NCBI GenBank assembly: GCA_951406725.2
Contig: OX597820.1
Span: forward strand, 37,510,001 to 37,574,000
Source: Octopus vulgaris
Lineage: Eukaryota
Direction of reading: 5' to 3'
Length of the DNA: 64,000 nucleotides
Part shown: one piece after another, positions 1-63,168 of the stretch
Numbering within the stretch: position 1 is the first letter of the stretch
How the letters are laid out: each line of letters begins with the position of its first letter
Program-made: the position numbers and the translations under genes
Notes under the pieces: model-generated
Told to the model about the DNA's origin: nothing
Database searches by the model: none
What the model saw: only the letters and a program-made list of their open reading frames with translations

Positions 1-618
1 GAAAATAATATTCTTCCACTGCTCTAGGTACCAATTCTGTGGGTTTTTAGTTCACTCTAAACACTTTGCAATGTTTGTTTTTGAAAGTAGTGGTTTTCTG
101 ATTGCAGCCCTCCCATGAAATCTGGCTTTGTGCAGCTCCTGGTGAACAGTTTTTGTGGAAACTGAGTTCTCGAGGTGGACTTTAAGCTCTGCTGTAATTT
201 TGTGATCCTTTCTAACAATTCACATAAGAGTCCGACAGTCCCTATCTGAAAGTTTTGGTTTTCTTCTGGAGTTTTGTTTTGATGAGGAGGTTTTTCCCTC
301 TTTCTCAAGGGCTGTCATTACTTTCAAGACAGTATTTCTTAATACACCAAACATTTCGGCTGTTTTCATTATGCTAGCGCTTGTCATACGAGCACCAACA
401 ATTTGACTTCTTTGAAAGTCCGATAGATCTGTCATTTTAATGAATTTTAACTACCTTTTTCTGATGATATCTGAAAAGAAACAGCAATTTTAGCAAAACA
501 TATTAAGTAACACTAATAATAAATCAAAAAACATAAAAATAAACAAACTTTTGGTGGTTTTATAGATATTTCAAAATTATGATGCTAGGTGTTTCCATTA
601 TTTTGTCCAACCACTGTA
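1..618 (-). mobile_element. Tc1-family DNA transposon, left end and decayed transposase N-terminus (runs off the window start)
   Basis: The minus-strand ORF 220..435 (MTDLSDFQRSQIVGARM...RKPKLSDRD) is a Tc1 paired-like HTH. The same frame continues through stop codons as IVRKDHKITAELKVHLENSVSTKTVHQELHKARFHGRAAIRKPLLSKTN...WKNIIF. A Tc1-type TIR (CAGTGGTTGGACAAAATAATGGAAACACC on the minus strand) ends at 616, followed by TA. Confidence 0.9.
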
Positions 619-4983: not shown

Positions 4984-5072
4984 TATCAATACCCCCCTCT
5001 CTCTCTATCTATCAATCCCCCTCTCTCTATCTCTCAATTCATCAACCCCCCCTCTCTCTCTATCTATCAATA
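4984..5072. repeat. Short degenerate tandem repeat (ctatcaa-Cn-(CT)n unit, 3-4 copies)
   Basis: Directly visible repeated unit. Confidence 0.7.
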
Positions 5073-6863
5073 CGTGCGTGCGCACACACATTTAGTTTGT
5101 AGGATCTAAACGTATCAAATACAAGGATAAATGCAATAAGATCAACATATATCAGATAGATATAGTGCGCAAACAAACATAACTTTTCAAATTTTAAACC
5201 ATATTGCGAAATAACTTATGGACTCTCTTTTCTCAATACTTCCTCCGCCTTCCCTCTCTCCCTCCAACATACACTCACTATTTATGTAACACTCTCACTC
5301 ACGCTTCATAATTTTAAATACTCTTCGGTTATTTAGTGTCATTTTTTTTTATTGTCTTGTCTTATGTGCATATAAAGGAATACAATTCGTCGGCTGTGTT
5401 TTCTATGCAAAACACGCATTGAGGTAAGGTTTTCTCACTTAAAAAAAAATCGTTTTGTTTGGTTTATTTAACATATACTTAGCATGCTTGTTGCTGTTGT
5501 TCCAGTCGTGACCATCCCGTCTGTCGAGCAGTGGTTAGGACCACATTATCTAACTAACGAATCTCTTGTGTCTTTTCGTTACCCCCCTTTTTTTTTCTTC
5601 TTTAAGGCGATACGGTGTGAATTGAAGGAAGTTTAACTGCGAGTTCTATTAGGTCAAGCGACTTATGCAAACGCCTCCGCCTGCAAACCGCTACTCACCA
5701 TATATCGTATTTTGTTATTTAATAAACTCAAATAGGCTTTGAAAGAGTTTTAAGTAAAGTCCTATATTTTGCACGACTAAATAAAATGCATTTTCTGATA
5801 CACTTACATTTACTATGTGAGCTCACACTCGAACGTTTGTTATTTCAGCTTAGTCTTCAGTTAAAATCAACGCTGCACTCAACTTGTCACTTTTCGTCCT
5901 TCTGCAGGTATAGAAAATCAATACCAGTGATATATATATATAAAGCCCAAAGGTTTTCATTGATTACATTTACCGCATCCCCAGTGAGACAAACCCTATA
6001 AAATTCCTTTTTTTTTTTTTTTTTTTCTTTTTTAATGAAGAGAAACTATCTGGTTCGTAAGAAAAACAATCACAAAACCTGTTGTTCGGCAAAAGAGACT
6101 TAAATAGAATAAGTAACAAGCTTTAAAAGAAAAAAAAAATATTGGGAGTGATTCGTTCGACTAAAATCCTTCACAGTGGTTCCAAAACATGACCACCGTT
6201 CAATAACTAAAGCGAGTAAATGATGAAGAAAGGACGATGGTCTTGAGAAGCCCTTTTTTTTCTAAGCAAATATTCAACACTTTTACTAATTCACTAAGCT
6301 TTTTCGCAATGTATATTACTTCGACGACATAACGAGGGAACTTCTTGGCTTGTTTTATCTGCTAGAAATAGTTACCAAACACATTATTGGGTAATGTAAT
6401 CTTAGAAAGACGTAATGGTTGTGACCGGAATGTCATTACTTAATCAGTGCTGATAATATCAATTTGATAGTAAAAAGAGGAAGAAAGGAAAAAATTGTAA
6501 CTAGTCTGTGGAGGTGATTCAAACTCTTCTCTACCCCTCTATCTCTCTTTCTGTCTGTCTGTCATTAGCTGAGAATATTAAAGTGAAAGTAATATCTTAA
6601 ACTCAGAGCGCAAAATACATGCACACACACGCACACACACACACGGTAATATGTAACGGTAAGATCCAAGAATCAAGGTGTAGAAAGTTAGTAAGCTTCG
6701 AGTAGTCCGTAGAAGGTGTAGAAAAACAACTTTCAGGAACAATAGTGGTTTATTGACGTAGAATGTTGTAAATTTTCCCCATATCGAAATTCGATAAGCT
6801 GAAAAAATTTATTTTATAGTTCACGGTTAGCGGCTGGGTTTGGTGTGTATGCGAATAAAAGTC

Positions 6864-7900
6864 CAAATTTAGGGAATGGTGTAGATAAAATCAAAGCTAC
6901 ATTTGTTTCTTAACTTACAGACCACACCCCCTCCATTTTCTCCCAAATTTGATTATTTTTGTAATTTTTTTTTTGCCCAAAATACCCGTTTTCAGATACG
7001 GAGGTTCCGGAAAATTGCCAAAAATCGGTATCGTGAACCCCCTCCCCCCAACTTCAATTTTGACTTTTTTCTTCAACACTAACCCTAAAACCGTAACCGT
7101 AAGTACAGAAATGTTTTGAAATTTTTGTCCGAATCATGATGTCCATATTTTTCTGCATATTTAGAAAAACAAAAAAAAATTCTTAAAAAAAATTTTCAAA
7201 GATTTTTGGAAATTTTTTTCAGAATCATAATCTCCATATTTTTCTGTATATTTTGAAAAAAAAAAATTGTGAAAAAAGTTAAAAATGAAAGAAGTGGGGG
7301 GTAATTTAGAAATGTTGATTTTTGCCAATTTTTTTGCAGATTCCCCGTAGCCGAAAAGGGGGACTTGTGTCGAAAAAAAAAAATGTTAAAAGGGTGGTTT
7401 GGTGGTGGTGATGGTGGGGGACGGGCGGAAGTCTTGCTGAACCTCGGAAGTAGTAATTATTGAAAACGAAGGGTAATCCACTAGCTTCTCATCAGCTCAA
7501 AGATACCTTAGTCGGCAAAGGTAAAGAATACACACACTCAGTGTTTAGGATTTATGTTTAAGGTCACGCTGAAAATGGATGGTGTGCGTATTCTTTACCT
7601 CTGCCCTTTAGTCAAATGAAGGTTACATTGTCAAGGGATTCCATAACTCACAGATTTGATTTAAAATGTGTGGAAAGCACCACATTGGATCGAAAATGGT
7701 GGGCTTTCCACGCTCTACGCATTTTCGATCAAATCTCCTGCGAGTTAACATGGAATCCCTTGATGACAATGTAACCTTCATTTCACTAAAGACGAGCAGC
7801 TAGCGGATTACTCCTCGTTCAGGTAATTTCTACTTCTGGGGTTCTGCTAGCTATGAAACATAAGTAGCCGGGATTTTATCTATTCCATTCCCTAAATTTG
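6864..7900. mobile_element. ~1 kb non-coding element of nested inverted repeats (foldback/MITE-like, family not recognised)
   Basis: 57-bp ungapped terminal IR 6864-6920 / 7844-7900 (46/57 by manual count). Internal IR about 6965-7070 / 7272-7383. Direct repeat about 7115-7183 / 7206-7270. Branched IR block 7433-7850. Confidence 0.65.
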
Positions 7901-7932
7901 TGTGTGCGTACAGACACACGCATGTATGTATG

Positions 7933-7969
<37 letters not shown>

Positions 7970-7970
<1 letters not shown>

Positions 7971-8262
7971 TGGAGGCGCAATGGCCCAGTAGTTAGGGCA
8001 GTGGACTCGTGGTTTCAATTCGCAGACCCGGCGTTGTGTGTGTTTGTTGAGCGTAAACACCTAAAGCTCCACGAGGCTCAGGCAGGGGGTGGTAGTGACC
8101 CCTCTTGTACTCTTTCGCCCCAACTTTCTCTCACTCTTTCTTGGGTAACGCTGCGATGGACTGGCGTCCCGTCCAGCTGGGGGGAACACATACGCCACAG
8201 AAACTGGGAAATCAAGCCCATGAGCCTGGCTAGGCTTGAAAAGGGCGCATAAATAAAAAATA
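7970..8262 (+). mobile_element. tRNA-derived SINE with a Meta-domain-like central region
   Basis: A-box-like tggcccagtagtta and B-box-like ggtttcaattc; central gctgcgatggactggcgtcccgtccag...acagaaac resembles the MetaSINE conserved domain; A-rich tail. Confidence 0.65.
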
Positions 8263-9294
8263 ATACACACACACACACATATATATACACAACTAAAATC
8301 CTTTAGGGCGGTGCCCATGACTGAAGCAAATATTGGTCTATTGGGTCAACCGAGACTACAGTTAGAAGTGCACTCTGCTGTGGGATCAAATCCGAGGCAG
8401 TGATTTTGGACTATCCACCATTCAGCTTACCTCCTGGTAAAAACTTATGCCTTTACACCAAAACCATTTGGGTTACAAAGTGAGTTGTCAAATTTTGCAA
8501 CTGTATTAAACTTTAGGAGCAGTCCTTGAATCTATTTCTCTACTCTACTTTTTTCAGTCACTAGTATGATTTCGTTTGGCCACCGGAGAATTGCATTTTT
8601 TCTTTTAGGTGGTAATGTGGCAGAATTTTGGCTCTCAATGAAAGCGTACATTTTGTGGTGATATTTGAATTAGATATTTTTTCTTTTTAGATTTTCTTCT
8701 TTTAATAATTTGGCTTGCGAAACAAAAACAAAAGAATGAAAATGAATCGAAATAACAAGAAACTGTAACCGATCTGAAATGATTACTTCCCATAGTTAAT
8801 TGTTGCAGTAAATTGAATTTAAATCAACAACACGTGCACGCGCACACAGAGCTAACTTTGAAATATAACCTGTACAATGCAAATAGCCTTTTGTATAGAT
8901 TGAATGTGTTAAAAATGCTTAAAATGTAGCACCACCTACTACAAACTATCAAACCTGTGCAAGAAACAAGGAAGCTTTTCTGTGGTGGCTTGACTTGTTA
9001 GAAATAGCCAAATTTACCTACTGCTTCAAAACTAGACATTGATAGCATAACCATAGGTGTATATCCTGAAAGAAGAAAAAGAAAAAAGACATGATGTTTA
9101 AGGTTGGAATATCTTCAGATCTGTTCATTCAGAGTGCGCTGGGGTTATACAAAAACGATGGAGCTTTTAGAAGCTAACGAGGGAAACATGTGAAGTAACT
9201 TGACCTGATCTCAACAATAAACACCTGATCCTGCTCATGGTCTTTCCACCTGCTAGAAATAGTAGCAAAATCTTCTTGAAATAATGGATTCACA

Positions 9295-9455
9295 TTGTTT
9301 CGAGGGAGGGAGTAAGTCGATTACATCGACCCCCAGTGCTTGACTAGCATTTATTTTATCAACTCCGAAAGTTTGAACTGAGAACGTAAAGACGGACGAA
9401 ATGCCGCTAAGCATTTTGTCTAGTATGCTAACAACTCTGCCAGCTTGCCGCCTTA
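9295..9455 (-). mobile_element. SINE family A copy
   Basis: gtcgattacatcgacccccag...gccgctaagcatttt...ctgccagcttgccgcc is the reverse complement of family A including its head. Confidence 0.8.
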
Positions 9456-9907
9456 GTCATCCTTTACTGTTTTAAAAAGAAGAAAGTCACAATATGTCAT
9501 GTACTCCTAGATACACTATGTCTGAATAATGTATGATTTGGTCATACCTGGAACACCTGTTCTGGTTCAGTCTGTTTTGTGTTTGCTTTTGGTAGAAATT
9601 GTCACTGTAAAGGTCTTTTCTTTGTTGCCATGGTAACAAAGTAGTGGTAAAAGGATTGGTGAGGGTCATAATGCAAATGCTCCTTTTTGGCCCTTTATCA
9701 TAGCTGATTCAGAGAGGGAGAGAGAGAGAAAACTGATTTCAAGATTTGCCTGGGTTCCATTGCTTTTTTTTGATATTCCAAATGTAGAGGCATTCTATAT
9801 ATCTGGTTGTTTTTAATGGTTTTGGTTCATGAATGCTTGCACATTGATGGCTTAAGTATGTGGATATATATCTGTACTGTGTGTGTACAGACATCCATCT
9901 CCTGTGC

Positions 9908-10700: not shown

Positions 10701-10740
10701 ACTTCCTGTTATGATTCAGACAGAATTTTGTTGAGGCAGA

Positions 10741-10879
10741 TTCCCCTCTGAGATTCACACACTTATTGCAGCAGTCCTTCAGTCTTTCTAAACCCTGTAA
10801 AAAAACTCAGAAGGTTGGGCCTCCAGCCAGACTTTCACAAAACCCTTAATGCCAGGAATTTTTCAGCACCCCCCTTGTA
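10741..10879 (+). mobile_element. Mariner-type MITE, partial copy
   Basis: Homologous to 61807-62021; ends gccaggaatttttcagcacccccctTGTA. Confidence 0.75.
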
Positions 10880-11139
10880 TATGTATATGTGTGTGTGTTT
10901 GTGTGAATACTTGTTTTGTCATCACTTCATGGTTGTAAACAAACTGCGTCATCATAAAAGTCATCGTTTCAGTCTCCTATGGAAAATGTTGTCTTGCCTA
11001 GGTACAAATGAGGATTGGTGACAGGTAGTGTCTGACCATAGAAAATCTGCCTCAACAAAATTTTGTCTGACACATACAAGCATGAAAAAGCAGACATTAA
11101 AGATAACTGTGATAATCATTTTTACAAAGAAGCCATTCT

Positions 11140-12445: not shown

Positions 12446-12590
12446 TATATATATATATATATACACACAAACACACACATATATATTTATATATAAATAT
12501 ATATACTTATATTTACATATACACACACGCATAAATACATACATACATACATATATAATGTATATATATACATACACACACACACATATA
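12205..12590 (+). mobile_element. SINE family B 5' half followed by a (TA)n/(CA)n microsatellite
   Basis: tgtggtaagaagcttgctttccaac...caccttgtgcaagtgtcttctactatagcc...gaagcccgtcgtatat matches 49899-50070. Confidence 0.8.
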
Positions 12591-13607
12591 CAAGAAAAAG
12601 CACCACTGATGCTATATTTCTGCTAAGACAGCTGCATGCGAAATTCTCAGCCAAAGATAAATCTCTGTACCTGGCTTTCGTTGACATGGAGAAAGCCTCT
12701 AACAGGTTCCTCCGATCCCTTATCTGGTGGTCAATGTGGAAACGAATGATAGATGAATGGCTAGTGAGAGCTGTGCAAGCCATGTACAGGGATGCTGTTA
12801 GTAAGGTGAGGGTTGGCAATGAGTATAGTGAAGAATACCTGGTAGGGATTCACCAAGGATCAGTCCTCAGCTCCCTCTTATTCATCATAGTCCTCCAGGC
12901 AATAACCGAGGAATTCAAGACAGGATGTCCCTGAGCGCTTCTCTATGCTGATGACCTTGCTCTAATAGCTGAGTCACTATCAGAAGTAGAGAAGTTTCAG
13001 GTGTGGAAGCAAAGTCTAGAATCGAAGGGCCTTAGAGTCAATCTAGCAAAAACCAAAGTCTTAATAAATAGGAAGGCAGACAAATCACAAATCCCTACAT
13101 GTAGATGGCCCTGCTCAATCTGTAGAAAAGGCATAGGTAGAAACTCCATAAGATGTTCCCGGTGTAAGTTATAGACGCATAAAAGGTGCAACAATATTAA
13201 ATGAAGGCTAACTGGGAAGATAGTTTTTATATGTGGCAAATGCTCAGAGGCAACAAACACTAAAAAAATATGCAGAAAACAGCTTCCGTTTTCCAAATCA
13301 GTAGCAGGGGTGGATGCTCTGAGAATGTAGCTGCTAGAATAAGAATAGCTTGGGCAAAGTTCAGAGAGCTCCTACCTCTGCTGGTGACAAAGGACCTCTT
13401 GCTCAGAGTAAAAGGTAGAATGTATGACGCATGTGTGCAAACGGCCATGCTACATGGCAGTGAAACATGAGCTGTGACTGCTGAGGACATGCGTTAGCTT
13501 GCAAGGAATGAAGCTAGTATGCTCTACTGGATGTGTAATGTCAGTGTGCATACACAACAGAGCGTAAGTTCCCAGAGAGAAAAGTTGGACATCAGAAGCA
13601 TCAGACA
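12591..13607 (+). mobile_element. RTE-clade LINE reverse transcriptase fragment (pseudogenised)
   Basis: STTDAIFLLRQL...LYLAFVDMEKA, VGIHQGSVLS, LLYADDLAL, a Cys-rich insert WPCSICRKGIGRNSIRCSRC, and RIRIAWAKFRELLPLL...MLHGSET. Stops and indels are present. Confidence 0.93.
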
Positions 13608-14098: not shown

Positions 14099-16117
14099 GT
14101 GTCTCTCTGTGTAGTTTATGTGTATATACATGTGTTTGTGTGTGTATGGGCCGTTTTTGATTGGTCTCAGACTCTGGGACCAATATATATATATACTTAT
14201 GTCAGCTCAATATGGTGAAATAAATTTCATTTTTCAATTTTGTCTTTCTTTTTTAAATCAGAATCTTAAATTGAAATATTATTTCAGATTTTTATGAAGT
14301 GAAAAATGTATATTAAACACTTTTGTATGTAGTATTTTGTATATCATTTCATAGGACATAAATGATTTTGGCTTTGTTTGTGCATTTTATTTACAGCAGG
14401 AATTTCTGTCTAGATAAAAACAAATTGTCAGTTATTTTCTGGTTATTTCATGTCAATGGTTTTGAGCTAAGTAGAATCCTTTGGAACTGTTCCCATCAAC
14501 CTTCAGTATGGAAGGATATAGAAGACATTGCTGAATGCAAACACTTTCATTGTATGTATGTCCATTTAAATACTGTTATTATTGAATACTTTCAATGGAA
14601 GTGTATTTAGTGATGCTTGATTGTAATAATTACAGTATTTCAGGAAGAGAAGTATTTATGTATTATCCTTATTGATTAATTATTATTTTAATCTTCACAT
14701 TACATAAAGTAGTATTTTCAATAATAAAAGTGTTACATTCTGGTCTTATTTTCCTTTTTTGTATTGAAAATTGATTTGGCCTTCTGTACTGAAGGCTGAT
14801 GTCAGTAATTCCATGGGACACGTTTTTACCTGTGGCACCAAACATTTAATGTATTAATTACTATCATAGGAAAATGCAACATTAATTATAGTGATTTTTA
14901 ACTCTTTGTTATACATCACTTAACTTAGACAATAGATATAACTTCTGTCATACCTTCCTAAATGTGGTGGTCCACTTTGGCTGGAAAAAAATGGGTGTCA
15001 TGTACTTATGTATAATGTGCACCCCTAATATTTAAGTTTAAAAATCCAGGGGAAAAATGAATATTATTCACAAATAAATTAGGCAATCACATTATTAGAG
15101 TATTTCGTTTATGTACATATCAGCTCACAACTAAAAGAAAGCCACTCTGTAGCTGCTTTGACTACTAGAAATAGTAGCCATATCTCCTTTAAATCTCATA
15201 CTAACTATCTTAAAATGTATTGTACCTATTACGTAATATATCTGGAAATAAAATGATCTGATAATTATAGCTGGATTGTTTTTGATCATATGTCTGCTTG
15301 ATTAGAACTGACTTGAGAATAAGCAACTAAATTTAGTACTCATTATATTCTAAGCTTTTTGATAAATTGAAAATAGCATTAGCAAAATTTGCAGAAAATT
15401 TCTAACAGGATCCCTAACAAGAACATTTGTGCAGTGGTACCTGTTTCATAGTTTGAAAGTTGAAATATATAGGGCATCCAGTAATGAAAAAAAAACTTCT
15501 GCAACAGGGTGAAAATTTCATGTTTGAAAGAATGCTGTTATGTCATTAATGCTAGCATGAAAAATGGATGTCATTTACACACACATACAAATAAACATAT
15601 AAGTACTGGCATAGCTGTGTGGTAAGAAGTTTGTTTTGCAACTATGTGATTTCAGGTTCAGCCCTATTATAAGGCATCTTGGATGACTGTCTACTATAGT
15701 CCTGGGCTAATTATTACTTTGTGAACAGAATTGATAGATGGATACTGTATGGAATCTCATTGTATATGTGTGTCTGTTTGTGTGCATATGTGTGTGAATG
15801 TTGACTTTCCATAGCCTTTGCTTGTCACCATCTGAGCAAAATAGCAATATGTTTACATTCTTTGTTCCTTGTTGACATTGTGACCAGTTGTTCTGCACTC
15901 TTGAAGTAAATCCCTTACCTAAAAAACAGGCAAGTGCTGGTGACAGGAAGAGCATCCAATTTTAAAATGCTGCCTCAAATAAGTTCTTGTCCAACCTATA
16001 CTAGCATGAAAAAACAAGACATTAAACAAATGAGCTTCTGAATAATGTTTTAGGTCTCAGTTAAGTTAAATAACCTAACCAGTTTAATATCTTGACCTAA
16101 AATATTTATTGATTATT

Positions 16118-16462
16118 CAGTTCTGTATTTAAGAGATGAGGAGTTATGTACATTATTTACATTTGAAAGATATTTGTCCTCATCTTGTTTCTTGTGAACA
16201 CAATGTTTCAGCTTATATACCCTCCAGCCTTCATCAGGTGTCTTGGGGAAATTTTGAATCTGGGTTCTCATTCCCAAGGTATTTTTCGATTATTATTATG
16301 GTCACTGCCTGGAATCACTCTCGGAATCTTGGGGTTAGTAGCCTGCACTCTTAACCACTATGCCACGGACATATGGTGTAGTGGTTAGACACCTGAAGAA
16401 GGCTGGAAGGTATATCAGCCGAAACGTGTTGAGGACAAATATCCTTCAAATGTAAATAATGT
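16118..16462. mobile_element. Palindromic insertion carrying two inverted hammerhead-like cores around a tRNA-like head; Penelope-like
   Basis: Arms 16150-16242 / 16388-16462. Flanking direct repeat ttattgattatt at 16106-16117 and 16462-16473. CTGAAGA..stem..GAAAC on plus (16393-16425) and CTGATGA..GAAAC on minus (16237-16205). tRNA-like segment on minus at 16366-16300. Confidence 0.7.
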
Positions 16463-16924
16463 TATTGATTATTGTTGTGCAGTGATATTTCATTTGCCCA
16501 TAAGTTGGCTTTTTTTTCTTTTTTTTTTTCAGTTAACAGTTCTGCTGTAAACAAAATGCAATTTTTTTTTATTTAGTAAAGAAATAAACATGTAAAGCAG
16601 GTAATAACTTGTCCTGTGTTGTGGAATCATGTTGAGAGTATTTACTCTTAGTTATTTAGCTAAGAAACAGTTATAGAAAACTTCAGACAAAAATCTTAAT
16701 CTTGAGAAATACATAAAAATATCTGAACTACAAAGTATATTCAAAAAATGTTTGACAGGTGATTGTAAATACTAATTCTGACCTTTGGCTAGTCATAGTA
16801 GAAGTTACATAGAGTAATGGAGATCAACTCTGGGTCTTGAGTTCAAATTCACTCCATCCATTTTATTTATATTTTCAGAGTATACTTTATTTCATATGTT
16901 GTGTTTATGACAGTTATATACAAT

Positions 16925-17270
16925 ACCTTTTACTTGTTTTAGTCACTGGACAGCAGCTGTCCTGGAGCATCACCTTGAAGGGTTTAGTAAAAAAAAGAAA
17001 TGACCGTTTTTAAAGTTATGGTAATGTAAACAAACCAACACCAGTTGTCTAGCTGTGGTGGAGGACAAACATGAAGATACGTACACACGTGCATATATAT
17101 ATATATAAATATATATACACACACAATGTTTCTTTCAGTTTCCATCTACCAAATCCACTCACAAGGCTTTGGTCAACCTGGGGCTATAGTAGAATACACT
17201 TGCCCATGGTGCCACACAGTGATACCATTTAGTTGGGGAGCAAACCTTTTACCATATAGCTATATCTGTG
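16925..17270 (-). mobile_element. SINE family B copy (duplicated at about 18785-19130)
   Basis: Reverse complement of family B. Confidence 0.8.
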
Positions 17271-19429
17271 CTTATCAATATTTGTGATAATTATACAAGT
17301 CCACCACAATAAATAAGCTTAAATCTTTGGATGGCTATTCAAATGGAATATTCTGATAATTCAATCTTATCTGAACAGTGCACCTCATAAACTGTCCAAT
17401 ACATTGAGGTAGTAGTTACTTTAGATTGTCCTGACCATGTTTAAACATGCAGAAGGTATGCAATGCCATAATGACAGGATAATAATTGTCTCACAGACTT
17501 AGTAGACACTGTGCAAATTATGTTTATTACAAATAGGTTTCAATAATTTCATTAAAAAAAGTAATTAGATTATTCAGACAGTATAAGAAGGTATTCAAAG
17601 TGTAGTAGAAATATAGAGTTTCCGGTATGCCATGAAACGTCTGGTTGTAAAGAAATATTATCTTGCTTGGAAATTGGTAAGAAGTTGGCGATTGTGAAGG
17701 TTCAGTTTAGAAAATCTTTGACTGTCTAAATTCCAATTATTACCATTGTGAACAGAATTGATAGATGGATGTATGGAATCTCATTGATGTGTGTCTGTTT
17801 TCCAAATGTGAATGTACTGGATAATTTGTTGACAGAGAAATATCAACAAATGTCACCTTCGCAAAGCACAGACTATAAACGTTGTAGGAGACATTTGCCC
17901 CTGGTTCCATGGAATGAGAGTGAACCTGCTAGCTGCAAAGCAAACTTCGTAGCTTAAAAATGTATAAAATAAGTAAATAAATAAATGATTAAATATATAT
18001 GTAAAACATATGTAAAGAGAATATTTACTTAGTGTTGTTAATCATATTTTTCATTTTAAAGATGACAGCTAATTTGTCTTGATTATTCAGTTCTGTATTT
18101 AAGAGATGAGGATTATGTACATTATTTACATTTACCAGATATTTGTCATCATCTTGTTTCTTGTGAACACAATGTTCAGCTTATACTGTTCATCAGGTGT
18201 CTTGGGAGGAAGGTCTCATTCCCAAGGTATGGACATTATTATGGTCACTGCGCAGTAAGCATCATCTTGCAGGTTTTTATTGTCTACTTAATCTCAGTCC
18301 TGGTTGTGGCCCCTAATTTTAGCCTTAGAGTTTGCTTGCAAATTTCTTGAACCATTGAAATGTTTGCGGTGAAAGTTAGCCTACATTTCTGTTTTGTTAC
18401 ATATTATGGCCTACTGGAAAATAGGGTGTGTTTTTTTTAAAAATTATTTGTTGAAGTATGCACAAACATAACAGTTGTTGGAGTGAGTTAAGTTGATACT
18501 CTGAAGTGTCAGTTGTTTGTATTTTCATTAGTTTTCTGTCTAAGTAACCAAGATATTTTATAACTCTTAATGGTTCAGTTCATATAGATGAACTACAAAG
18601 TATATTCAAAAAATGTTTGACAGGTTTGTAAATACTAATGTCTCTTCACATCTTGTTGCTCTTATTGAATTGTGCTTCCCTAGCCCTTCACTCAATAGTT
18701 TACCCACTCCTTTCTTCTTAGAAAAGCCCTTCCCTCACTTTGCATACTTTATTTCATATGTTGTGTTTATGACAGTTATATACAATACCTTTTACTTGTT
18801 TTAGTCACTGGACAGCAGCTGTCCTGGAGCATCACCTTGAAGGGTTTAGTAAAAAAAAGAAATGACCGTTTTTTAAAGTTATGGTAATGTAAACAAACCA
18901 ACACCAGTTGTCTAGCTGTGGTGGAGGACAAACATGAAGATACGTACACACGTGCATATATATATATATAAATATATATACACACACAATGTTTCTTTCA
19001 GTTTCTCTCTCCAAATCCCACTCACAAGGCTTTGTCAACCTGGGGCTATATTCATATTCATGCAAAGAAGTGTGGATGGCAGAATCAGTAAGTTGGGGAG
19101 CAAACCTTTTACCATATAGCTATATCTGTGCTTATCAATATTTGTGATAATTATACAAGTCACCCTTCCAAGGGTTAAAACTGAGACAGACTCAATAACG
19201 TTTAAATTCCAGTAACTCGTTAGTGATGGGGGTTATTGATTAACTGAATTTTTGGAATGCCTTGATAAAAGATGTCATTATCCTTATCATCATGTTTATT
19301 TTTTTTTCCATGCTGCATAGTTGGATGGGACTTTTTGAGGCATTTTTTTACAGTTGGATACTTTCCTGATATCAACCATTTTAGTCACCCCTTATGACAT
19401 GCAGGAATGCATACAGTGTACTCGTTCTG

Positions 19430-19786: not shown

Positions 19787-19985
19787 ACTATCCGAAATCC
19801 ATACTTTAATACACCATTACAAAGGCAATATATAAAATGAAATGATATACAGTAATAGTAAAAGTAAAAAGATAAAGAGATATAAGTTTCTCAAAACTGA
19901 CAACCAATCAACCATACCTATAAAAGCCTCTTCAGAGAATTAAATTAAATTTGTTATAATAGTGAAAAATATTATATAATCATAT

Positions 19986-20018
<33 letters not shown>

Positions 20019-20165
20019 ATACACATTTGTACAAAAAGGAAGGTAAACAGAACAATATAAAACAAAATATATAACAGTGTATATATTAATATTAATAAGT
20101 ACCGATATTATGGACTTGGTGCTAACTTAACTGTATCTATTTTTAGTATTTTTTTATTATTATTA

Positions 20166-20203
<38 letters not shown>

Positions 20204-20806
20204 AGTAATTTTTATTAACTTTTATAGCTTTAGAATTTTATGAACTGTACCACGGATTTAATTATTATTTTTCATCTCCATATGTGTTAGCCCTTTTTTT
20301 ATAAAAAAAACTATTAGCCAAATATGTATAATATCGGTACTTATTAATATTAATATATACACTGTTATATATTTTGTTTTATATTGTTCTGTTTACCTTC
20401 CTTTTTTGTACAAATGTGTATTATATTATATAAGTGTAGCATTATGATATATAAGTTTTTATATTTTACATTTTTATATTTTTATATTTATATGTATATG
20501 ATTATATAATATTTTTCACTATTATAACAAATTTAATTTAATTCTCTGAAGAGGCCGTGGGGCATCCTTGTTAATGCCTCATTTATACCTGCCTTTATGG
20601 CTTATAGGTTAAATGAGGTATGACTGTCCTCACTGCCGAAACAGCTGTCAGTTTTGATTTATTTGCATATTATATTTGAAATTTTTTACTTATATCTCTT
20701 TATCTTTTTACTTTTACTATTACTGTATATCTCATTTCATTTTATATATTGCCTTTACTCATATGTAATGGTGTATTAAAGTATGGATTGAGTATCATCG
20801 GATAGT
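19787..20806. repeat. Large inverted repeat (arms 19787-20111 and 20328-20806) around a (TTA)n spacer
   Basis: 20010-20111 is an almost exact reverse complement of 20328-20432. Further blocks pair: 19925-19985 with 20495-20555, and 19787-19888 with 20688-20806. Confidence 0.9.
20540..20655 (+). ncRNA. Hammerhead ribozyme (type I, Penelope-type minimal stem III, extended stem II)
   Basis: CTGAAGA 20546-20552; stem II ggc/gcc closing an ~85-nt hairpin 20553-20637; GAAAC 20638-20642; palindromic AGCT loop; GTC triplet 20647-20649; short stem I (ct/ag plus imperfect extension). Confidence 0.75.
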
Positions 20807-26004: not shown

Positions 26005-26520
26005 GCCTTCTTGTATTTATGAATTCCTTTATTTATGTAGAATATCAACACATGTGGTGCTTATAAATTTGTTTCCAAAATGTTCTCACACACACAGGCA
26101 CACACACACACACACCTGAGTAAGTGCATAAATACGAAGCAAGGTGGAGGTAGAGTAATATGGTTTATTAAAAAAGCTGCAGTAAGAAAGAGAGAGAGAT
26201 AATGATGTAAATAAAAACACAAAAAAATATACATGTATATAAGCAGTTTTATTTCTTTATTTGCATCACTATCTCCATGTCTACTTACCTGGATTCCTCT
26301 TACAGACACTCTTTACCCTGTAGCCTTAGTCCTTGGTAAAGATTTCAGAATGTAAGTTCAAATCATTTGAATGCTACTAAATGTTTTCTATATTGAGCAT
26401 CTTTGATTCTCATTTGTTGACTCTCTCTCTCTCTCTTTCTGTATATCCACACGACTAAGCAGATAAATGCAAGACAAGGTGGAAAAAATAGTACTCAAAT
26501 ACCGAAGGTAGAATGATAGG

Positions 26521-26678
26521 CTTTTTTACTAAAGCTACAAAGGCATCACAAAAACTGTTACTCAGTTTCCTGTTCCTCGTTGTGATCAAGAATTCTTGAT
26601 CACAACTATTCAACAAACAGGAATATGAAACTCTTGAGTAATAATTTTTGTGGTGTTTTTGCTGCTTTAATAAAAAAG
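26521..26678. repeat. Palindrome with a perfect 28-bp centre; the arms carry a decayed hammerhead-like motif
   Basis: gttgtgatcaagaattcttgatcacaac at 26579-26606 is self-complementary; imperfect arms extend to 26521 and 26678. Confidence 0.85.
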
Positions 26679-27397: not shown

Positions 27398-28696
27398 TAT
27401 ATGCACTCTATAAAATAAATATTTTCCAGAGAAGTAACATTTTGAAGAATCCCAACTTATAAAGATAAAATGAAGTAAAACAAAGAACAAACCCATCATA
27501 CCATTGTATTACATTGCAATAATAGTTTTTTTTGGTGAAATCTTTTTTTTATATATATAATGCACACACACCTCACACATATGGTGTCTCTTTTAGTACA
27601 CTTTAAAAGGGTAGATGGGGAAAGAGCAAGATGAGAAGAGAAATGGTATATTGATTATTTTACCTTGTTAATGTTTTATGTAAGATCATATATTGATCTG
27701 AATGTAAAAAATTCATTAATGAATGTAAAAATTGATTTATTCTAACACTTCTGTTTGCTTCACACATTGGTCACCTGTTACATTTTTCTTTACACTGTTT
27801 GCACACAACTGTTAAATCACTTTTAAAGAAAGTATTTATTTCACTTTCATTTATATATTTTAAACAAAACCTTTGTTTCTTTGAATTCGTGGGTTGGATT
27901 GGGAGTCCTGAAATACATCTTACACATTTTGATGATCTGTGGGGCTAGATCTGAAATTAGGTGTGAAGTTTGGGTTCTTCTCATTGAGTATTTAGCCATT
28001 AGAAATCTTTCTTCGCTGTTTTATTTCCAGTTCTTAGCTATCTTCTTTCCAGTTTTCCTGGGACAGTGGAAAGTCTTTCTTTTCTCAGTTACTTTTCACA
28101 GACGTTCCTTCATCATCAGCTCAACATTCATTTTTCTCTTCTCACATGGTTTGGGTGGAATTCTGTTGAGATGGATTATCTATGGCTGGATGCCCTTCCT
28201 GTTGCCTGTTTCCATGCAAGGTAATATTTTTCCATGACCTGTTTGCATTGAAGATTGGAAATGGACACCACTTGCATGACAGTTATACTTGTTTACAGTT
28301 ATCACTTGATGTCAAGGCAAGAAGGCTGCAGCACACACATCTATATACACAAACATGTACACGCACATATATAAATAAATACAAGAGTATTTATATATAG
28401 GAGTGTGGTGGTTTAATAAAGTATGTGATTGGGTATTATCTGGTAATTGATATTTGATTTGGATGTATTTCTCCATTTTCTTATTTTGTATTATGAATTT
28501 GTAGTAAAACATTTTACCTTTGCCCATATAATACAGTAAATGAATTAATTGCATCGCAATTCTTAACATTTATGTATTAACTTTGTTGGGTACTTCACTA
28601 GCAGTATATTGGATATATGTTATCCCATGGAGGGTTGCATTTACAACCCCTATCTCAATTTGTACATATATAAAGATATATATATATATATGTATA

Positions 28697-28744
<48 letters not shown>

Positions 28745-28849
28745 TCTCTCTCTATATAAATATATACATATATATATGTTTATGTATATGTATGTATATA
28801 TAAGCAATAATAAATCTCTGAACGAGGTATAAACAGTAGCTGCACGACA

Positions 28850-29080
28850 ATGTGAAGTATATTTGCCACTTAAATGTTGCTAACAACTAATGGTGGATAC
28901 TACTGTAGCTTGTAGCCTCAGGAGAACATCTTCTCCAGCTGGCTATTGAGACACTTTCTGTACCCTATCAGTATTTGCAAAGGGAAGTCAGCTGGAGAAG
29001 ATGTTCTCCTGGAGCTACAAGCTACAGTAGCATCCACCCTTAGTGGTTAGCCACATTTAAGTGGCAAATATACTTCACAT
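28850..29080. repeat. Inverted repeat, 95-bp arms, 41-nt spacer
   Basis: 28850-28944 is an ungapped near-exact reverse complement of 28986-29080. Confidence 0.92.
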
Positions 29081-29183
29081 ATATACATACATATATGATG
29101 AGCATCTTTCAGTTTCTGTTTACCAAATCCACTCAATTATCTGGTCAGGCTGGTTGTGAAGACACTTGCTTCAGACACTATGC

Positions 29184-29328
29184 AAAAAAATTCATCAGCC
29201 TTTTTGCCAATGTAGAACATCAGAACATCAAGTTGAGTGTTTTTTTGTTCCGTAGAGAAAACTCTACAAAACAAAAGAAACACTCAACTTGATGTTCTAC
29301 ATTGGCAAGAAGGTTGATGAATTTTTTT
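29184..29328. repeat. Long hairpin with a 4-nt loop
   Basis: The arms pair up to gtagag-aaaa-ctctac (29252-29267). The left arm has an 8-bp tandem duplication (agaacatc). Confidence 0.9.
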
Positions 29329-29895: not shown

Positions 29896-32800
29896 AGAGA
29901 TGCAACTAAGTCCTACAATCATTTCTACTTGATGTGATGCATTTCTGTAATGTACTCCACGTAATGCTTGCCACTTAATGTAAGCATCATATAGCAATCC
30001 TATAGCAAAAGAGCTCAAACACTGTTCTTGAGTTTTATTCATACTTTGATTTACATCTATGCACTAGAACAGTAAGCATACTCTAGTACCAGAAATTTTG
30101 GAGGAAAGTCTGAAGTATGTGTCCTTCCATATTTTGTTGACCATATTAAATGTATAGAATAGTTTCTCAACTTATTTTCTGTTCTCTTTTACAGACTTAG
30201 TTATTTGTATATAACAAATAAAATTTTGTTCAATTTTTTTCTTTTAGTTAAGTTAATTATTTTTTAAAAACTGTATCATGGCTATGTCAATACCAGTACA
30301 CCATGTTGAAGTAGTGGCTATCCTATTTTACTGGTATTATGTTGAGTGTTAGACTTAACATGCCACTTACACATCACCATGTGGTTTTCGAGTGTTTGTA
30401 ATGGAGATCATTTTATTACAAACATTTGGACCAGATGCCCTTGTCTGCTTATGTCTTAGCAGCAGACATTCACCAGCAGAGAATTAGCCAAGGAGTAGGG
30501 TGGTCTGCAGAGGTCATGAGTACTGCTCTTATTCTGATTGTTGTGTGTTGAAGACCCTTTTATAACTTCAACACACAGTGTTTGCTCATTACTAGTTGAT
30601 GGAACAAATGAGCTTGTGGAAGCTGCCCTAACTCAGTTTAAATCTCTTTATTGATTCAGAACATTAGAAACTATAGTGGTTTAAAAACATAAAAAGCCAA
30701 ATGAAAAGATACAATATAATTTGGCCTTTTGAATAATAATTTTTTGCTACAAAGTGACATTGTACAGAATATAGTTGTTGTTTGTAGTTTGAAGTTAGCC
30801 CTAGCAGAAGATTTCTGGCACTTACCTAGTCAGCTGAATGACTAACTGCATTCCACAGATCCAAAGAACAGGACCACATAAAATATTAACATGCATTAGT
30901 TTATTACATGTGGTGCAGTGTTTAAGTTTGAACCTGTTGCCCATTGGTCTAGTCTGTATGTCTCTTGTTTTTCATTTGGCTCCAGGTTGATTTTAATTGA
31001 GTTGACTTGTGATCACAAGCACTCTAGCCATTATCAGCCCAATTTTAAATTCTTATGCATTTCAAGCAGTGCACTGATTGCATTATCCAAAGTGGCCCTC
31101 TCTTTTCAAGATGGTAGAGTATTATTTGAGAGATGTTTGGCTGCAATTTTTAAAAGGTTAGGTAACAACATAGAGAATATCTTGCTAGCTTGCATGTTTG
31201 TAGATTTTGGTGGTGATCACAACAATGCCAGGGCAAGGTGAACTTTGAACATATCTGCTGTTTCATTGCATCTATGTGCTCTGTATCAGGATTAACCACA
31301 CAACTGATAATGCTGCTATTAGGATGGAGTTGTTGTTATTTAATCCTAGGTGAGTCCCAATCAAACAGATTTATGATCAATCACAATCCATCTGTAATAT
31401 TCCTGTCTTTTCAGAAATAGTTTATACAGTACTACATAATTGTATGTTTTTTATAACACATTAAAGTGTGATTTGAAACATTTGGCTGCTGTTTCAAACC
31501 AGCTGAGATTGAATATCATGGTTGCCTGGTGTACTTGTAGGATGCTGTCTGTAAATGTGTTTGAGGGTGTTATAGAAATGTCTTTTTTTTTTTTTGGTGG
31601 GCTAGATATTGTATGCAGTGGCAGAGACTGTGATTGTTGAAGCTTACTGCAATAACAAACTACACACGCTACATATTCCGGTGCTTTTCAATTCTAGTAT
31701 TTTTGTTTGCTTCATTACACAAGCAGTCTATGGGTATTGTAAGTATGCAACCTGTGATGTTTTGTATTCTTTGTAACTTATGATTTGTTGGGGAGAAAAT
31801 GGGGACCCAGGTTGGACTGGCACAATCCATGATGCATCAGTTGTATAGCTTGTACATTAATGTTGTTGTTTGTAAGTATATTTGTGTGCCATTTGCTATT
31901 ATAACTATGTACTGTGAATATCATAGAGATGTTGTATTATGTCTTATAGAGAGCTTATATTCTTGTATTTTGAACCAGTTCTCTTCCAATTGGATGATGC
32001 AAAAACATTAAGCTGAAATAAGGATATAGCCTTGGACAAATAAAGTTTCTAAGGTGATAATTATGGCAAGAAATTTTATACAAACTTATTGCATTAATCT
32101 GATCAGTTGATGACCATTAATATCTGCTTGATTTGTACTTGTGAGATATATTGATTTTTCACATGCACACAAGGAAATGATAGATACTATGTTAAAAAGT
32201 ATTAATGACATAAGGGAAAGGGAACAAAAGAGGATATAGCTGACAATTGAGAAAAATGAGTTGTGAACTTGACTAGTTGAGTGTTTACCTCAACTCTCTG
32301 AAAATGAGCAATTTCTTACATAAAGGAAGGAAAAAGATTGAGTGATGTTCATGCTTTTCTCTGGTGTATTTGTAGTGTTACTTGAAACAGTTACAACCTA
32401 CAGCTGAAATCAGGATTGAAATTTGGCTCTTCAAAGTAGAAGTTGAAGCTTATACGTACAATGTGATATTTGTCAGCAGTCAGTACTTAGCTCCAGTTTC
32501 ATAGAGATAAATCCCTTCAGGCTGTTTGAAAATACTAGATAATTTGGTGCCTACTCTAAACTGCAATTTGAACCTAGGTAATGTAATGTAAAGTGTTCTG
32601 TTCAGATCACAGCAAAAATGCCAGCTACAGATTTGAAACTCACGATCCATGTGTAGGTAGTGCATTATTTAACCAACTTAACCTCTTTCCTCTGTACTGT
32701 GGTGTTCATTGGCAGTTTGTATTCATTTTATAGTACCAGCTATGAACTTGCCTCTGCTTTGTAGAACTTGCTGTAGCCTTACCTCTACAATACAATGCTC

Positions 32801-35673: not shown

Positions 35674-35704
<31 letters not shown>

Positions 35705-36615
35705 ATATATATATGTGTGTATGTATATATATATGTGTGTATGTATATATGTGTGTGTGTGTGTGTATATATATGTGTGTATGTATATATATGTGTGTGT
35801 GTATGTATATATGTGTGTGTGTGTATGTATATATGTGTGTGTGTGTGTATATATGTGTGTGTGTATGTATATGTGTGTGTGTATGTATATGTGTGTGTGT
35901 ATGTATATATGTGTGTGTGTGTATGTGTGTGTGTGTGTGTATATGTGTGTGTGTATGTATATGTGTGTGTGTATGTATATGTGTGTGTGTGTATGTATGT
36001 GTGTGTGTGTGTGTGTATGTATGTGTGTACATACACGTGTGTGTGTGTATGTGTGTACATACACGTGTGTGTGTGTGTATGTGTGTACATACACGTGTGT
36101 GTGTGTATGTGTGTACATACACGTGTGTGTGTGTATGTATGTGTGTACATACACGTGTGTGTGTGTATGTATGTGTGTACATACACGTGTGTGTGTGTAT
36201 GTATGTGTGTACATACACGTGTGTGTGTGTATGTATGTGTGTACATACACGTGTGTGTGTGTGTATGTGTGTACATACACGTGTGTGTGTGTATGTATGT
36301 GTGTACATACACATGTGTGTGTGTGTGTGTGTATGTATGTGTGTACATACACATGTGTGTGTGTGTGTGTGTATGTATGTGTGTACATACACATGTGTGT
36401 GTGTGTGTGTGTATATGTATGTGTGTACATACACATGTGTGTGTGTGTGTGTATGTATGTGTGTACATACACATGTGTGTGTGTATGTATGTGTGTACAT
36501 ACACGTGTGTGTGTGTGTGTGTGTGTATGTATGTGTGTACATACACATGTGTGTGTGTGTATGTATGTGTGTACATACACATGTGTGTGTGTGTATGTAT
36601 GTGTGTACATACACG

Positions 36616-36646
<31 letters not shown>

Positions 36647-36695
36647 GTGTACATACACATGTGTGTGTGTGTGTGTATGTGTGTACATACACGTG

Positions 36696-36726
<31 letters not shown>

Positions 36727-36735
36727 GTGTACATA

Positions 36736-36774
<39 letters not shown>

Positions 36775-37628
36775 GTGTACATACACATGTGTGTGTGTAT
36801 GTGTGTACATACACGTGTGTGTGTGTGTGTGTGTGTATGTATGTGTGTACATACACGTGTGTGTGTGTGTGTGTGTATGTATGTGTGTACATACACGTGT
36901 GTGTGTGTGTGTGTATGTATGTGTGTACATACACATGTATGTGCTTGTGTATGTGTGTGTGTGTGTGTATGTATGTGTGTACATACACATGTATGTGCTT
37001 GTGTATATGTGTGTGTGTATGTATGTGTGTACATACACATGTATGTGCTTGTGTATATGTGTGTGTGTATGTATGTGTGTGTACATACACATGTATGTGC
37101 TTGTGTATATGTGTGTGTGTATGTATGTATGTGTGTACATACACATGTATGTGCTTGTGTATATGTGTGTGTGTATGTATGTATGTGTGTACATACACAT
37201 GTATGTGCTTGTGTATATGTGTATGTGTATGTATGTATGTGTGTACATACACATGTATGTGCTTGTGTATATGTGTATGTGTATGTATGTGTGTACATAC
37301 ACATGTATGTGCTTGTGTATATGTGTGTGTGTATGTATGTGTGTACATACACATGTATGTGCTTGTGTATATGTGTGTGTGTATGTATGTGTGTACATAC
37401 ACATGTATGTGCTTGTGTATATGTGTGTGTGTGTGTATGTATGTGTGTACATATGTATGTGCTTGTGTATATGTGTGTGTGTATGTATGTGTGTACATAC
37501 ACATGTATGTGCTTGTGTATATGTGTGTGTGTATGTATGTGTGTACATATATATGTATGTGCTTGTGTGTATGTGTGTGTGTATGTATGTGTGTACATAT
37601 ATATGTATGTGCTTGTGTGTGTGTGTAC
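35674..37628. repeat. ~1.95 kb compound micro/minisatellite (TA, TG, TATG, then 25-55 bp units with gtgtacatacac)
   Basis: Directly visible; it accounts for the six 641-735 aa low-complexity ORFs. Confidence 0.97.
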
Positions 37629-51850: not shown

Positions 51851-53059
51851 GTGTCAAAACCATAATGATATCTGTGGGGCAGCTGATGATGGAGGTATGT
51901 TGGATTGTTGACATGACTGTTTTTGTATATGTGGAAAAGTATTATAACACATCCTTTTGATATATACACACACACATGCATGCACACACACATACACAAA
52001 TCCTGTGGCAATCACAGAAAGCTTCTCCAGTGGGCCCAGCTACCATACCACATAGTAACCCAATACAGAAGAGTATAATGTAGAGTTCTATACAGCTGAA
52101 ATCCAGGCGATCCAATCTATGAAATTATTTCTTAATAGTTGTATGGATCATAAAAAGCCAGGAGGTATGAGAAGTGAATATATTTATTTCACCACTTGAT
52201 ATTCATAAGATGATGGTTGTTTCACACCTTTTATCATGTAATAATTTCAGTGTATAATAAATTATTTTACATGTCTGCACCAATATGCATGCTGCACATT
52301 GCACAGTACTATCCATACATTTACAAACCAATGCAGATATAGAAGACTAGCTCTTCAGATCAACAGAATATTATGGTTAAATCAATGCTTTAACTTGGCT
52401 GTGTACAAACAAAATCAGGATGTAAATAAATATATTCACCTCTCATATCTCCTGCCTTTTTATGATGTTGAACTGTTAACCTTTACACATTTTTGTCTCT
52501 CTCCGTTTCTTTTTTTTCATTCCCTCTCTGTTTTTTTCCCTAAATTCTTTCTGCCAAAGAGCATAGGGTTGAAAATTAAGACTTTTCCATTCTTCCTTAG
52601 TGTTATACTAACACACCTGCTTGTTGTTCTTTCACTTGTTTTCATCTTTTGTTTTCTGTAAATTTGAACTACACACACACAAAGTTCTTTGTGCACAGTT
52701 AGCTATGTAATTGCTACTGGTGTATTTAGAACTCCACATAGTTTATTGTCATCTAGTCAGTTGGAAGCAATATGGTATGGTTACTACTATACTTATTAGA
52801 ATCAGTAGTCATCAAATCCATGGCAAATATAGGAAAAATGTGATGATGATGACAATGACTTCACCCATTTCTGCTGTTGTTGTTTAAAGCAGGATAAGCT
52901 ATGCTAGCCATAGTTATCATGCTGAACATCAGGTCATATTAAATGTTGTATATTGGAGATTGGAGAACAGAGATTCCAGGTATAGTGTAGTGAAATGCAT
53001 CTCAATTGCAGCCCCAATACTTATGTGTGACCCTATCATAGTTTAGAATATAGGCTTAC

Positions 53060-62915: not shown

Positions 62916-63168
62916 GTAGCATTCCCAAATGATCTGGTGTCTATTGCTATCAACTAAGTGAACATAACTTATCAAAAATAAGAGATTCAGTTTAGACATG
63001 CAAAAAATGCTTGCAGCAGATTTGACCAAATGGCCTAAATATTCCAACAGCTTTTTGCCTTGACCATCAAACCATACCAAGTAAAGATAAAAGTCTGAAT
63101 CTCTTATTTTTGATTGGTTTGTTCACTAAGTTCTTGGGAATAAGTACCAGATCATTTGGGAATGCTAC
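62916..63168. repeat. Nested inverted repeat (~250 bp hairpin)
   Basis: Perfect 23-bp pair 62916-62938 / 63146-63168 and perfect 20-bp pair 62971-62990 / 63095-63114, with imperfect pairing between them. Confidence 0.88.

Follow-up and report, generated by a model that had tools for sequence, protein, structure and literature searches.

What produced the branched, self-complementary DNA at positions 6864-7900 of the 64-kb stretch analysed here (the window, 35% G+C, with many microsatellites)? The original prediction saw either a modular foldback or non-autonomous element, or an integrated copy of an RNA or ssDNA replicon. The repeats that it listed are real, but they are not parts of one single element. 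Its first answer came close, and fails in one respect: the modules do not belong to a single element but are separate nested insertions, each with its own 8-bp flanking repeats. The region probably consists of two non-autonomous TIR elements (MITEs) inserted into an older foldback MITE; it is likely to be a commonplace pile-up of miniature DNA transposons that have since decayed, and no new RNA or ssDNA replicon.

The predicted terminal inverted repeat (6864-6920/7844-7900) matches without gaps at 46/57 positions, a score reached by none of 645 windows of the same length, and can be extended to 6921/7843 (47/58). The branched block at 7433-7850 is also confirmed, with a folding energy of -202.6 kcal/mol (60 shuffles, z -19.5); z is -14.6 for 6864-7900 as a whole (25 shuffles) and only -3.3 for the left branch alone (40 shuffles). 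In the complete fold 72-73% of bases are paired, and the two polarities fold equally (-384/-389 kcal/mol). The best of 424 tiled 418-nt windows is 28683-29100 (-212 kcal/mol vs -203 for the branched block when its exact coordinates are used), a plain foldback adjoining a microsatellite; a 231-bp foldback at 28850-29080 folds as strongly as the branched block.

To compare the two sides of the palindrome, the reverse complement of 7701-7925 was aligned to 6840-7700, with long gaps made cheap and boundaries not preset. The two are collinear over 6864-6912, 7432-7492 and 7606-7680, and long gaps are confined to 6913-7431 and 7493-7605. Both gaps are filled by hairpins that pair with themselves in the fold (6913-7432 and 7514-7605). 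The right arm (7701-7900) is a continuous inverted copy of the left side, minus the contents of the gaps. The longer of the two inserts is referred to as B and the shorter as H1; the features of the locus are as follows.

6645-6863, no strand: segment of the left flank that may be related to B and the outer end; 10 of 551 windows are as similar to B.
6864-6871, no strand: outer 8-bp flank CAAATTTA; matches 7893-7900 at 6/8 positions directly and at 8/8 when inverted.
6872-6921, plus strand: outer foldback left arm, segment 1; begins GG and pairs with 7843-7892.
6914-6921, plus strand: left 8-bp flanking repeat of B, CTTACAGA; 6/8 to 7433-7440, with one copy on the opposite arm.
6922-7432, no strand: insert B, 511 bp; missing from the opposite arm, with its own branch in the fold.
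6965-7071, plus strand: left arm of the subterminal inverted repeat of B; 75/111 columns with 7271-7381, 0 of 644 same-length windows reaching this score.
7079-7088, plus strand: telomere-template-like CTAACCCTAA in B; chance alone would give about 0.007 occurrences of its first 9 nt.
7106-7175 and 7197-7266, plus strand: direct repeats of B; 84% identical over 70 nt, spacing 91.
7271-7381, minus strand: right arm of the subterminal inverted repeat of B, partner of 6965-7071.
7391-7428, plus strand: G-rich tract at the right end of B; 24/38 G.
7433-7440, plus strand: right 8-bp flanking repeat of B, CTTGCTGA, from the flank comparison.
7441-7505, plus strand: outer left arm, segment 2; 7433-7493 pairs with 7791-7850 (48/62).
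7506-7513, plus strand: left 8-bp flanking repeat of H1, CCTTAGTC; 7/8 to 7606-7613, P 6e-4 for k=8.
7514-7605, no strand: H1, a MITE-like insert of 92 bp; 24-bp inverted ends (22/24) and GG...CC termini.
7606-7613, plus strand: right 8-bp flanking repeat of H1, CTTTAGTC, from the flank comparison.
7614-7694, plus strand: outer left arm, segment 3, with the central loop; adjoining pairings are given in the text.
7695-7892, minus strand: outer right arm, unbroken, with both empty sites; terminates CC.
7893-7900, no strand: outer 8-bp flank TAAATTTG, partner of 6864-6871.

Further in, 7606-7674 pairs with 7714-7791 (63/78, with three 3-nt gaps) and 7669-7686 with 7695-7711; the divergence of the three outer stems is mutually compatible (p=0.18). 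Excising H1 and B, each with one flank, leaves 418 nt that form one long hairpin with a small side loop: the number of hairpin loops falls from five to two, and the arms of this core align with 163 matched and 29 mismatched columns (85% identity). The branched shape thus exists because two insertions sit in one arm of a palindrome. Nesting does not account for everything: 12 extra nt at 7494-7505, which are partnerless on the right arm (a 13-column gap in the arm alignment), and three 3-nt bulges on the same arm are left without explanation.

The flanks of the inserts carry much of the argument. For both inserts the best flank match among k=2-12 is at k=8 (H1 7/8, B 6/8), and the chance of both matches jointly is about 4e-5 with any common k allowed. 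Each 8-mer is present as a single copy on the opposite arm, that is, as an internal empty site. The left H1 flank, CCTTAGTC, is non-palindromic and unpaired in the fold. The flanks of B agree at a junction that was fixed independently (P 0.006), which fits the 8-10 bp target-site duplication (TSD) of Mutator/Foldback elements. By eye, the opposite-arm 8-mer at this site shares position 4 with the right copy and position 6 with the left, a mixed agreement that is expected from one ancestral site duplicated once. The earlier claim that no TSD is evident is therefore true for the ends at 6864/7900 alone.

By its own structure, H1 resembles a known class of transposon. Its fold as DNA (z -5.15) is matched by none of 200 shuffles. 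Merlin elements are defined by GG ends, TIRs of 24-462 bp and TSDs of 8-9 bp (PMC8101967); both ends of H1 read GGCA, its TIR is 24 bp long and its 8-bp flanks agree at seven positions. It is thus more likely than not that H1 used a Merlin-family transposase. Merlin is reported to be abundant in O. bimaculoides, with 191 sequences (PMC8101967), and according to PMC13282606 it has 18 families (2.19 Mb) in O. vulgaris, alongside 55 Mutator families. In the 64-kb window we saw no partner with ends matching H1, and a Merlin transposase remnant (DDE_Tnp_IS1595) was absent among 300 of the 407 window ORFs left after filtering (Pfam). Paired H1 ends gave no match in the GTDB genomes, and of four 13-nt end motifs sought in 11 supplements of PMC8101967 three were absent, the other occurring twice, internally, in unrelated records.

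Insert B is harder to place. It runs from a C-rich start through a subterminal inverted repeat, a telomere-like motif and two direct repeats to a G-rich end; the inverted repeat, the direct repeats about 90 bp apart and the G-rich tract had all been predicted, and each stands with the values listed above. The G tract complements the C-rich start weakly, 27 of 1193 windows being equally good. Two telomere-like motifs had been proposed, and one holds: CTAACCCTAA is present at 7079-7088, whereas 6822-6845 contains merely degenerate GGTTAG. Why a telomere-like 10-mer should lie in B is left without explanation by nested insertion. A clean TIR was not found at the very ends of B, which read CCAC and, on the other strand, ACTT, not GG; the 107-bp inverted repeat is set in from the termini by 43 and 51 nt. 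B is unclassified, and perhaps Mutator/foldback-like. Its arms differ at 32/107 positions vs 28/186 in the outer stems (p=0.004), although nesting makes B the younger component; on that account the repeats of B would have been imperfect from the outset.

The outer ends can be read in more than one way. The status of CAAATTTA is ambiguous, since it may be a TSD flanking the outer element, or the inverted repeat of that element may itself begin with these 8 nt: with ends at 6864/7900 a TSD is absent, and with ends at 6872/7892 the element reads GG...CC with direct flanks of 6/8. Those flanks are at the same time perfect inverted complements, and elsewhere in the window palindromic words in long inverted repeats imitate TSDs. 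A TA or TWA target-site reading also fits. The first 14 nt from 6872 agree with the left end of H1 at 10/14 positions (P 6e-4, uncorrected); over positions 1-11 the agreement is 7/11, below the 10 of 11 by which Repbase assigns ends to the same superfamily (one mismatch allowed; PMC4455052). Among 32 GG...CC-bounded inverted pairs in the window, 8- or 9-bp flanks with at most two mismatches are found in H1 and 6872-7892 only, two such pairs against 0.28 expected (P=0.03). Perhaps the outer element also used a Merlin-family transposase, the chance of which we put a little short of even. In GTDB a 21-nt pattern of the outer end had one match, in Pedobacter, where about 1.1 were expected; homology stops at 23 nt.

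Beyond these ends the picture is less sharp. The original prediction that the left boundary may extend to 6645 is unproven; 6645-6863 folds no better than shuffles (z -0.2). A degenerate inverted repeat said to link 6790-6880 with 7040-7130 is recovered at those coordinates (52/77; 0 of 644 windows) but fades when the whole flank is compared with the whole of B (57/551); masking homopolymers lowers that count to 10/551 and makes a direct alignment the best one. A link of 6790-6880 to B is borderline once the search space is counted. The word GGTGTAGA occurs at 6677-6684, 6715-6722 and 6878-6885 (the last inside the outer end), and once more elsewhere in the window.

That CpGs are retained is correct, but the property is regional and not specific to the element: the CpG observed/expected ratio is 0.78 in the element, 0.96 in the flank at 5100-6600, 0.6-1.0 over 5-9 kb and 0.23 window-wide. 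This suggests that the CpG-rich 5-9 kb is unmethylated DNA near a gene start. The region 5001-9000 is a CpG-island-like zone with splice-like sites at 5423/5424 and 5907/5908 (by eye), and is probably the 5' end of a plus-strand gene; on regional CpG content, the candidate promoter zone of the original prediction is plausible. A cellular-gene domain was absent among 300 of the 407 window ORFs (Pfam). One candidate exon, 14398-14550, has one weak match (E 4e-4).

Several other features of the window deserve record. Right of the element, after a (TA)n(CA)n run, lies a 56% GC repeat (7973-8250) that we take to be tRNA-SINE-like; a tRNA scan of the window found none. An inverted pair at 16150-16462 carries two hammerhead-like cores (16206-16237, minus strand; 16393-16424, plus strand), both below the Rfam gathering score, and is presumably of the kind found in Penelope-type repeats. 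A nested inverted duplication occupies 19796-20789 (19796-19887/20688-20789 and 19926-20111/20328-20555), and by eye a hammerhead-like CTGAAGAG...GAAAC lies near 20545-20615. Further local palindromes or TIR-like pairs are present at 26196-26275, 26521-26678, 29184-29328, 52147-52466, 62916-63168 and 10710-11076; that at 52147-52466 has 43-bp ends (93%) and 6/9 flanks and is a possible MITE. Coding remnants comprise a Tc1-type transposase (55-219, minus strand) and a broken reverse transcriptase (12497-13171, plus strand), of which 12584-12931 has 13 matches, including one from Argonauta hians, two from Octopus bimaculoides and one labelled Escherichia coli; these matches make an octopod host likely. 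There is also a TG/TATG microsatellite of about 2 kb (35674-37626) with a higher-order period of 50-54 nt, and a recent direct duplication (16882-17301 and 18744-19161; 92% over 429 nt).

How might the locus have been assembled? In cut-and-paste transposition a DDE transposase acts in trans on inverted ends. A palindromic non-autonomous element would first have entered CpG-rich DNA near a gene start; H1, and separately B, would then have inserted into its left arm, a DDE transposase supplied in trans binding their inverted ends and a staggered 8-bp cut leaving the flanking duplications. All parts would afterwards have decayed neutrally, by about 8% per arm. The branched fold would be a geometric by-product without selected function, though long double-stranded RNA would be part of any transcript that crosses the region. 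On the premise that the outer arms started out identical, their divergence (JC 0.084 per arm) corresponds to about 23 My (15-34), an estimate that assumes both this premise and the rate of PMC13282606; the distance is close to JC 0.09, at which that source places a TIR expansion. Nesting of MITE in MITE has been documented in plants and mosquitoes (PMC5172404).

Coding capacity is absent from the element: the longest stop-to-stop frame is 86 aa, none of its eight ORFs has a Pfam match, and a 70-aa ORF (7562-7771) has no homologue among proteins of 38-123 aa. Nor did any of the three layers (H1, B, outer element) turn up again elsewhere in the 64-kb window, so that family status is unproven. 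One candidate copy, 30427-30592, was rejected, its likeness being at chance (1/25 and 16/25 shuffles). The segment 28803-28856 resembles the outer right arm (39/56) and beats 100 of 100 shuffles; its nhmmer E-value is 1.6, and it has no left-arm support. The families of H1, B and the core may already be catalogued in the O. vulgaris consensus library (Zenodo, doi:10.5281/zenodo.19138903, cited in PMC13282606); a limited literature search, confined to top-ranked results, found no publication on the element at 6864-7900.

The main rival reverses the order of events. If the outer palindrome were a younger local fold-back duplication, then H1 and B would be older insertions into the host DNA, skipped as the polymerase slipped between their 8-bp flanks. 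Such an origin would account for the arms of B, whose divergence is about double that of the outer stems and would reflect a greater age, and it sits well with the ambiguity of the outer TSD. Local inverted duplications are moreover frequent in the window (nine were used as controls), and one of them, at 28.7-29.1 kb, equals the branched block in the strength of its fold. The cost is that two exact skips are required in one copy, that chance must account for the GG termini at 6872/7892 and for the 10/14 agreement with the end of H1, and that the 8-mer at the right-arm B junction is not a simple left/right hybrid. This alternative thus explains the age of B better and the outer GG ends not, and we regard it as unlikely.

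Less probable again is that the nest was built once, in a master copy, and that the 1-kb composite then moved whole as a foldback family by means of its outer ends. The inserts lie between two outer ends that are still intact, and PMC8101967 describes Merlin families whose TIRs are imperfect and which contain internal tandem repeats; against this stands the single copy in the 64-kb window. Decay in the flanks of H1 and B is similar in extent to that in the outer arms, which is compatible with both readings.

A different class of explanation holds that the three-way fold itself is selected, in a transcribed 1-kb structured RNA made from transposon parts, either viroid-like or a cephalopod telomerase RNA. 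Here the mismatches are informative. On the plus strand, and with the weak G-tract pairing left out before the count, the six element stems contain 17 G-U and 18 A-C mismatches (35 transitions) and 30 transversions; nine control inverted pairs from the window contain 17, 15, 32 and 25, respectively, and no contrast is significant. The transversion clusters emphasized by the original prediction are not unusual, 7/11 mismatches in the terminal inverted repeat comparing with 25/57 in control foldbacks (p=0.33), and clustered mismatch runs are no commoner in the element (11/49) than in controls (8/45; p=0.62). RNA-type selection was accordingly rejected, there being no excess over controls of G-U, transversions or clustered mismatches. 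The spectrum fits neutral decay; selection on both strands, or on ssDNA, remains compatible with it. We consider a selected fold very improbable.

Of its two forms, the integrated replicon (viroid-like RNA or ssDNA), its branched fold kept by selection for replication, can point to the 72-73% pairing, to the equal folding of both polarities and to three regularly spaced 3-nt bulges on one arm. The search results run the other way. No Rfam family reached its gathering score in the 64-kb window, and the 16 weaker matches in 5500-9500 are mostly microsatellite or generic hairpin and include no ribozyme family. A hammerhead core is absent from the element and from its joined end, although that scan picked up two such cores in other parts of the window. 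The 70-aa ORF has no homologue and the eight element ORFs no Pfam match, 6645-7900 is without a blastn match in phage and plasmid collections, and the branch points coincide with TSD-flanked inserts. With G-U and A-C mismatches in balance, no ribozyme and no coding homologue, the replicon of the original prediction is unsupported, and we give it scarcely any weight.

In its boldest form, the idea of a structured non-coding RNA gene would make the locus a cephalopod telomerase RNA, in which 7079-7088 would be the template and 7433-7850 a P4/P5/P6 three-way domain. CTAACCCTAA lies on the plus strand directly 3' of a long stem and has the length of 1.5-2 repeats expected of a template, and a stem with two abutting long hairpins recalls the protostome eCR4/5 (PMC8480181). 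The 21 molluscs in the table of that source include no cephalopod, and a limited literature search (top-ranked results) found no publication on cephalopod telomerase RNA. The remaining features disagree. No candidate for a mollusc-pattern P2/P3 pseudoknot was found in 7090-7440, using a pattern derived from the protostome alignment of PMC8480181 and not benchmarked on a known telomerase RNA; the fold has no P1.1 hairpin ahead of the motif; the sole ANANNA in 7843-7910 (at 7858) is within the terminal stem, the next ACA lies in a microsatellite, and there is no Rfam H/ACA match there. Mollusc telomerase RNAs span up to about 410 nt in PMC8480181, a G-U bias is wanting, and what looks like P5 is H1, which has a TSD of its own. 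Of all the explanations this is the least credible.

If nested insertion holds, the locus is ordinary transposon archaeology, with some points of wider use. A palindromic host retains the pre-insertion sites on its other arm, so that a single locus records the order of insertion; octopods may have a Merlin-type MITE family, defined by H1; and nested MITEs can imitate a viroid-like fold in genome scans. Given its CpG-rich site near a probable gene start, the locus could yield long double-stranded RNA. Cephalopods are known for heavy A-to-I editing.

Several known systems invite comparison with the locus. Helitrons and Helentrons have terminal motifs and a 3' hairpin and lack a TSD; the 8-bp flanking repeats of both inserts argue against membership. 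Viroid-like circular RNAs and retrozymes share with the element a length of about 1 kb, about 72% pairing and folding of both strands; the element differs in having neither ribozyme nor ORF homologue, in its neutral mismatches and in its TSD-flanked modules. Protostome telomerase RNA, as presented in PMC8480181, shares the template-like CUAACCCUAA and a stem with two long hairpins, but the element is more than twice as long and its ends pair together. With Tm1, a Mutator/Foldback element of Meloidogyne that has an 8-10 bp TSD and in which nested TIR elements are likewise reported (PMC3169594), B shares inverted repeats that are long and imperfect, direct repeats in its interior and a flank of 8 bp. 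The arms of Tm1 average 93% identity and contain its direct repeats, whereas the repeats of B are subterminal and 68% identical, with the direct repeats between the arms (PMC3169594). Non-autonomous elements of the Merlin superfamily (IS1016/IS1595-related) are like H1 in their GG termini, 24-bp TIRs and 8-bp flanking repeats, and like the outer element in GG termini and, if it starts at 6872, arms of about 200 bp, its TSD being ambiguous. A parallel is offered by the nested MITE multimers described in PMC5172404 (Tourist and Stowaway in maize, rice and sorghum; MITEs of mosquitoes): there, as here, small TIR elements lie inside one another near genes. Those multimers have other hosts and another TSD length, and in the octopus locus both empty sites survive in the opposite arm of the palindromic host.
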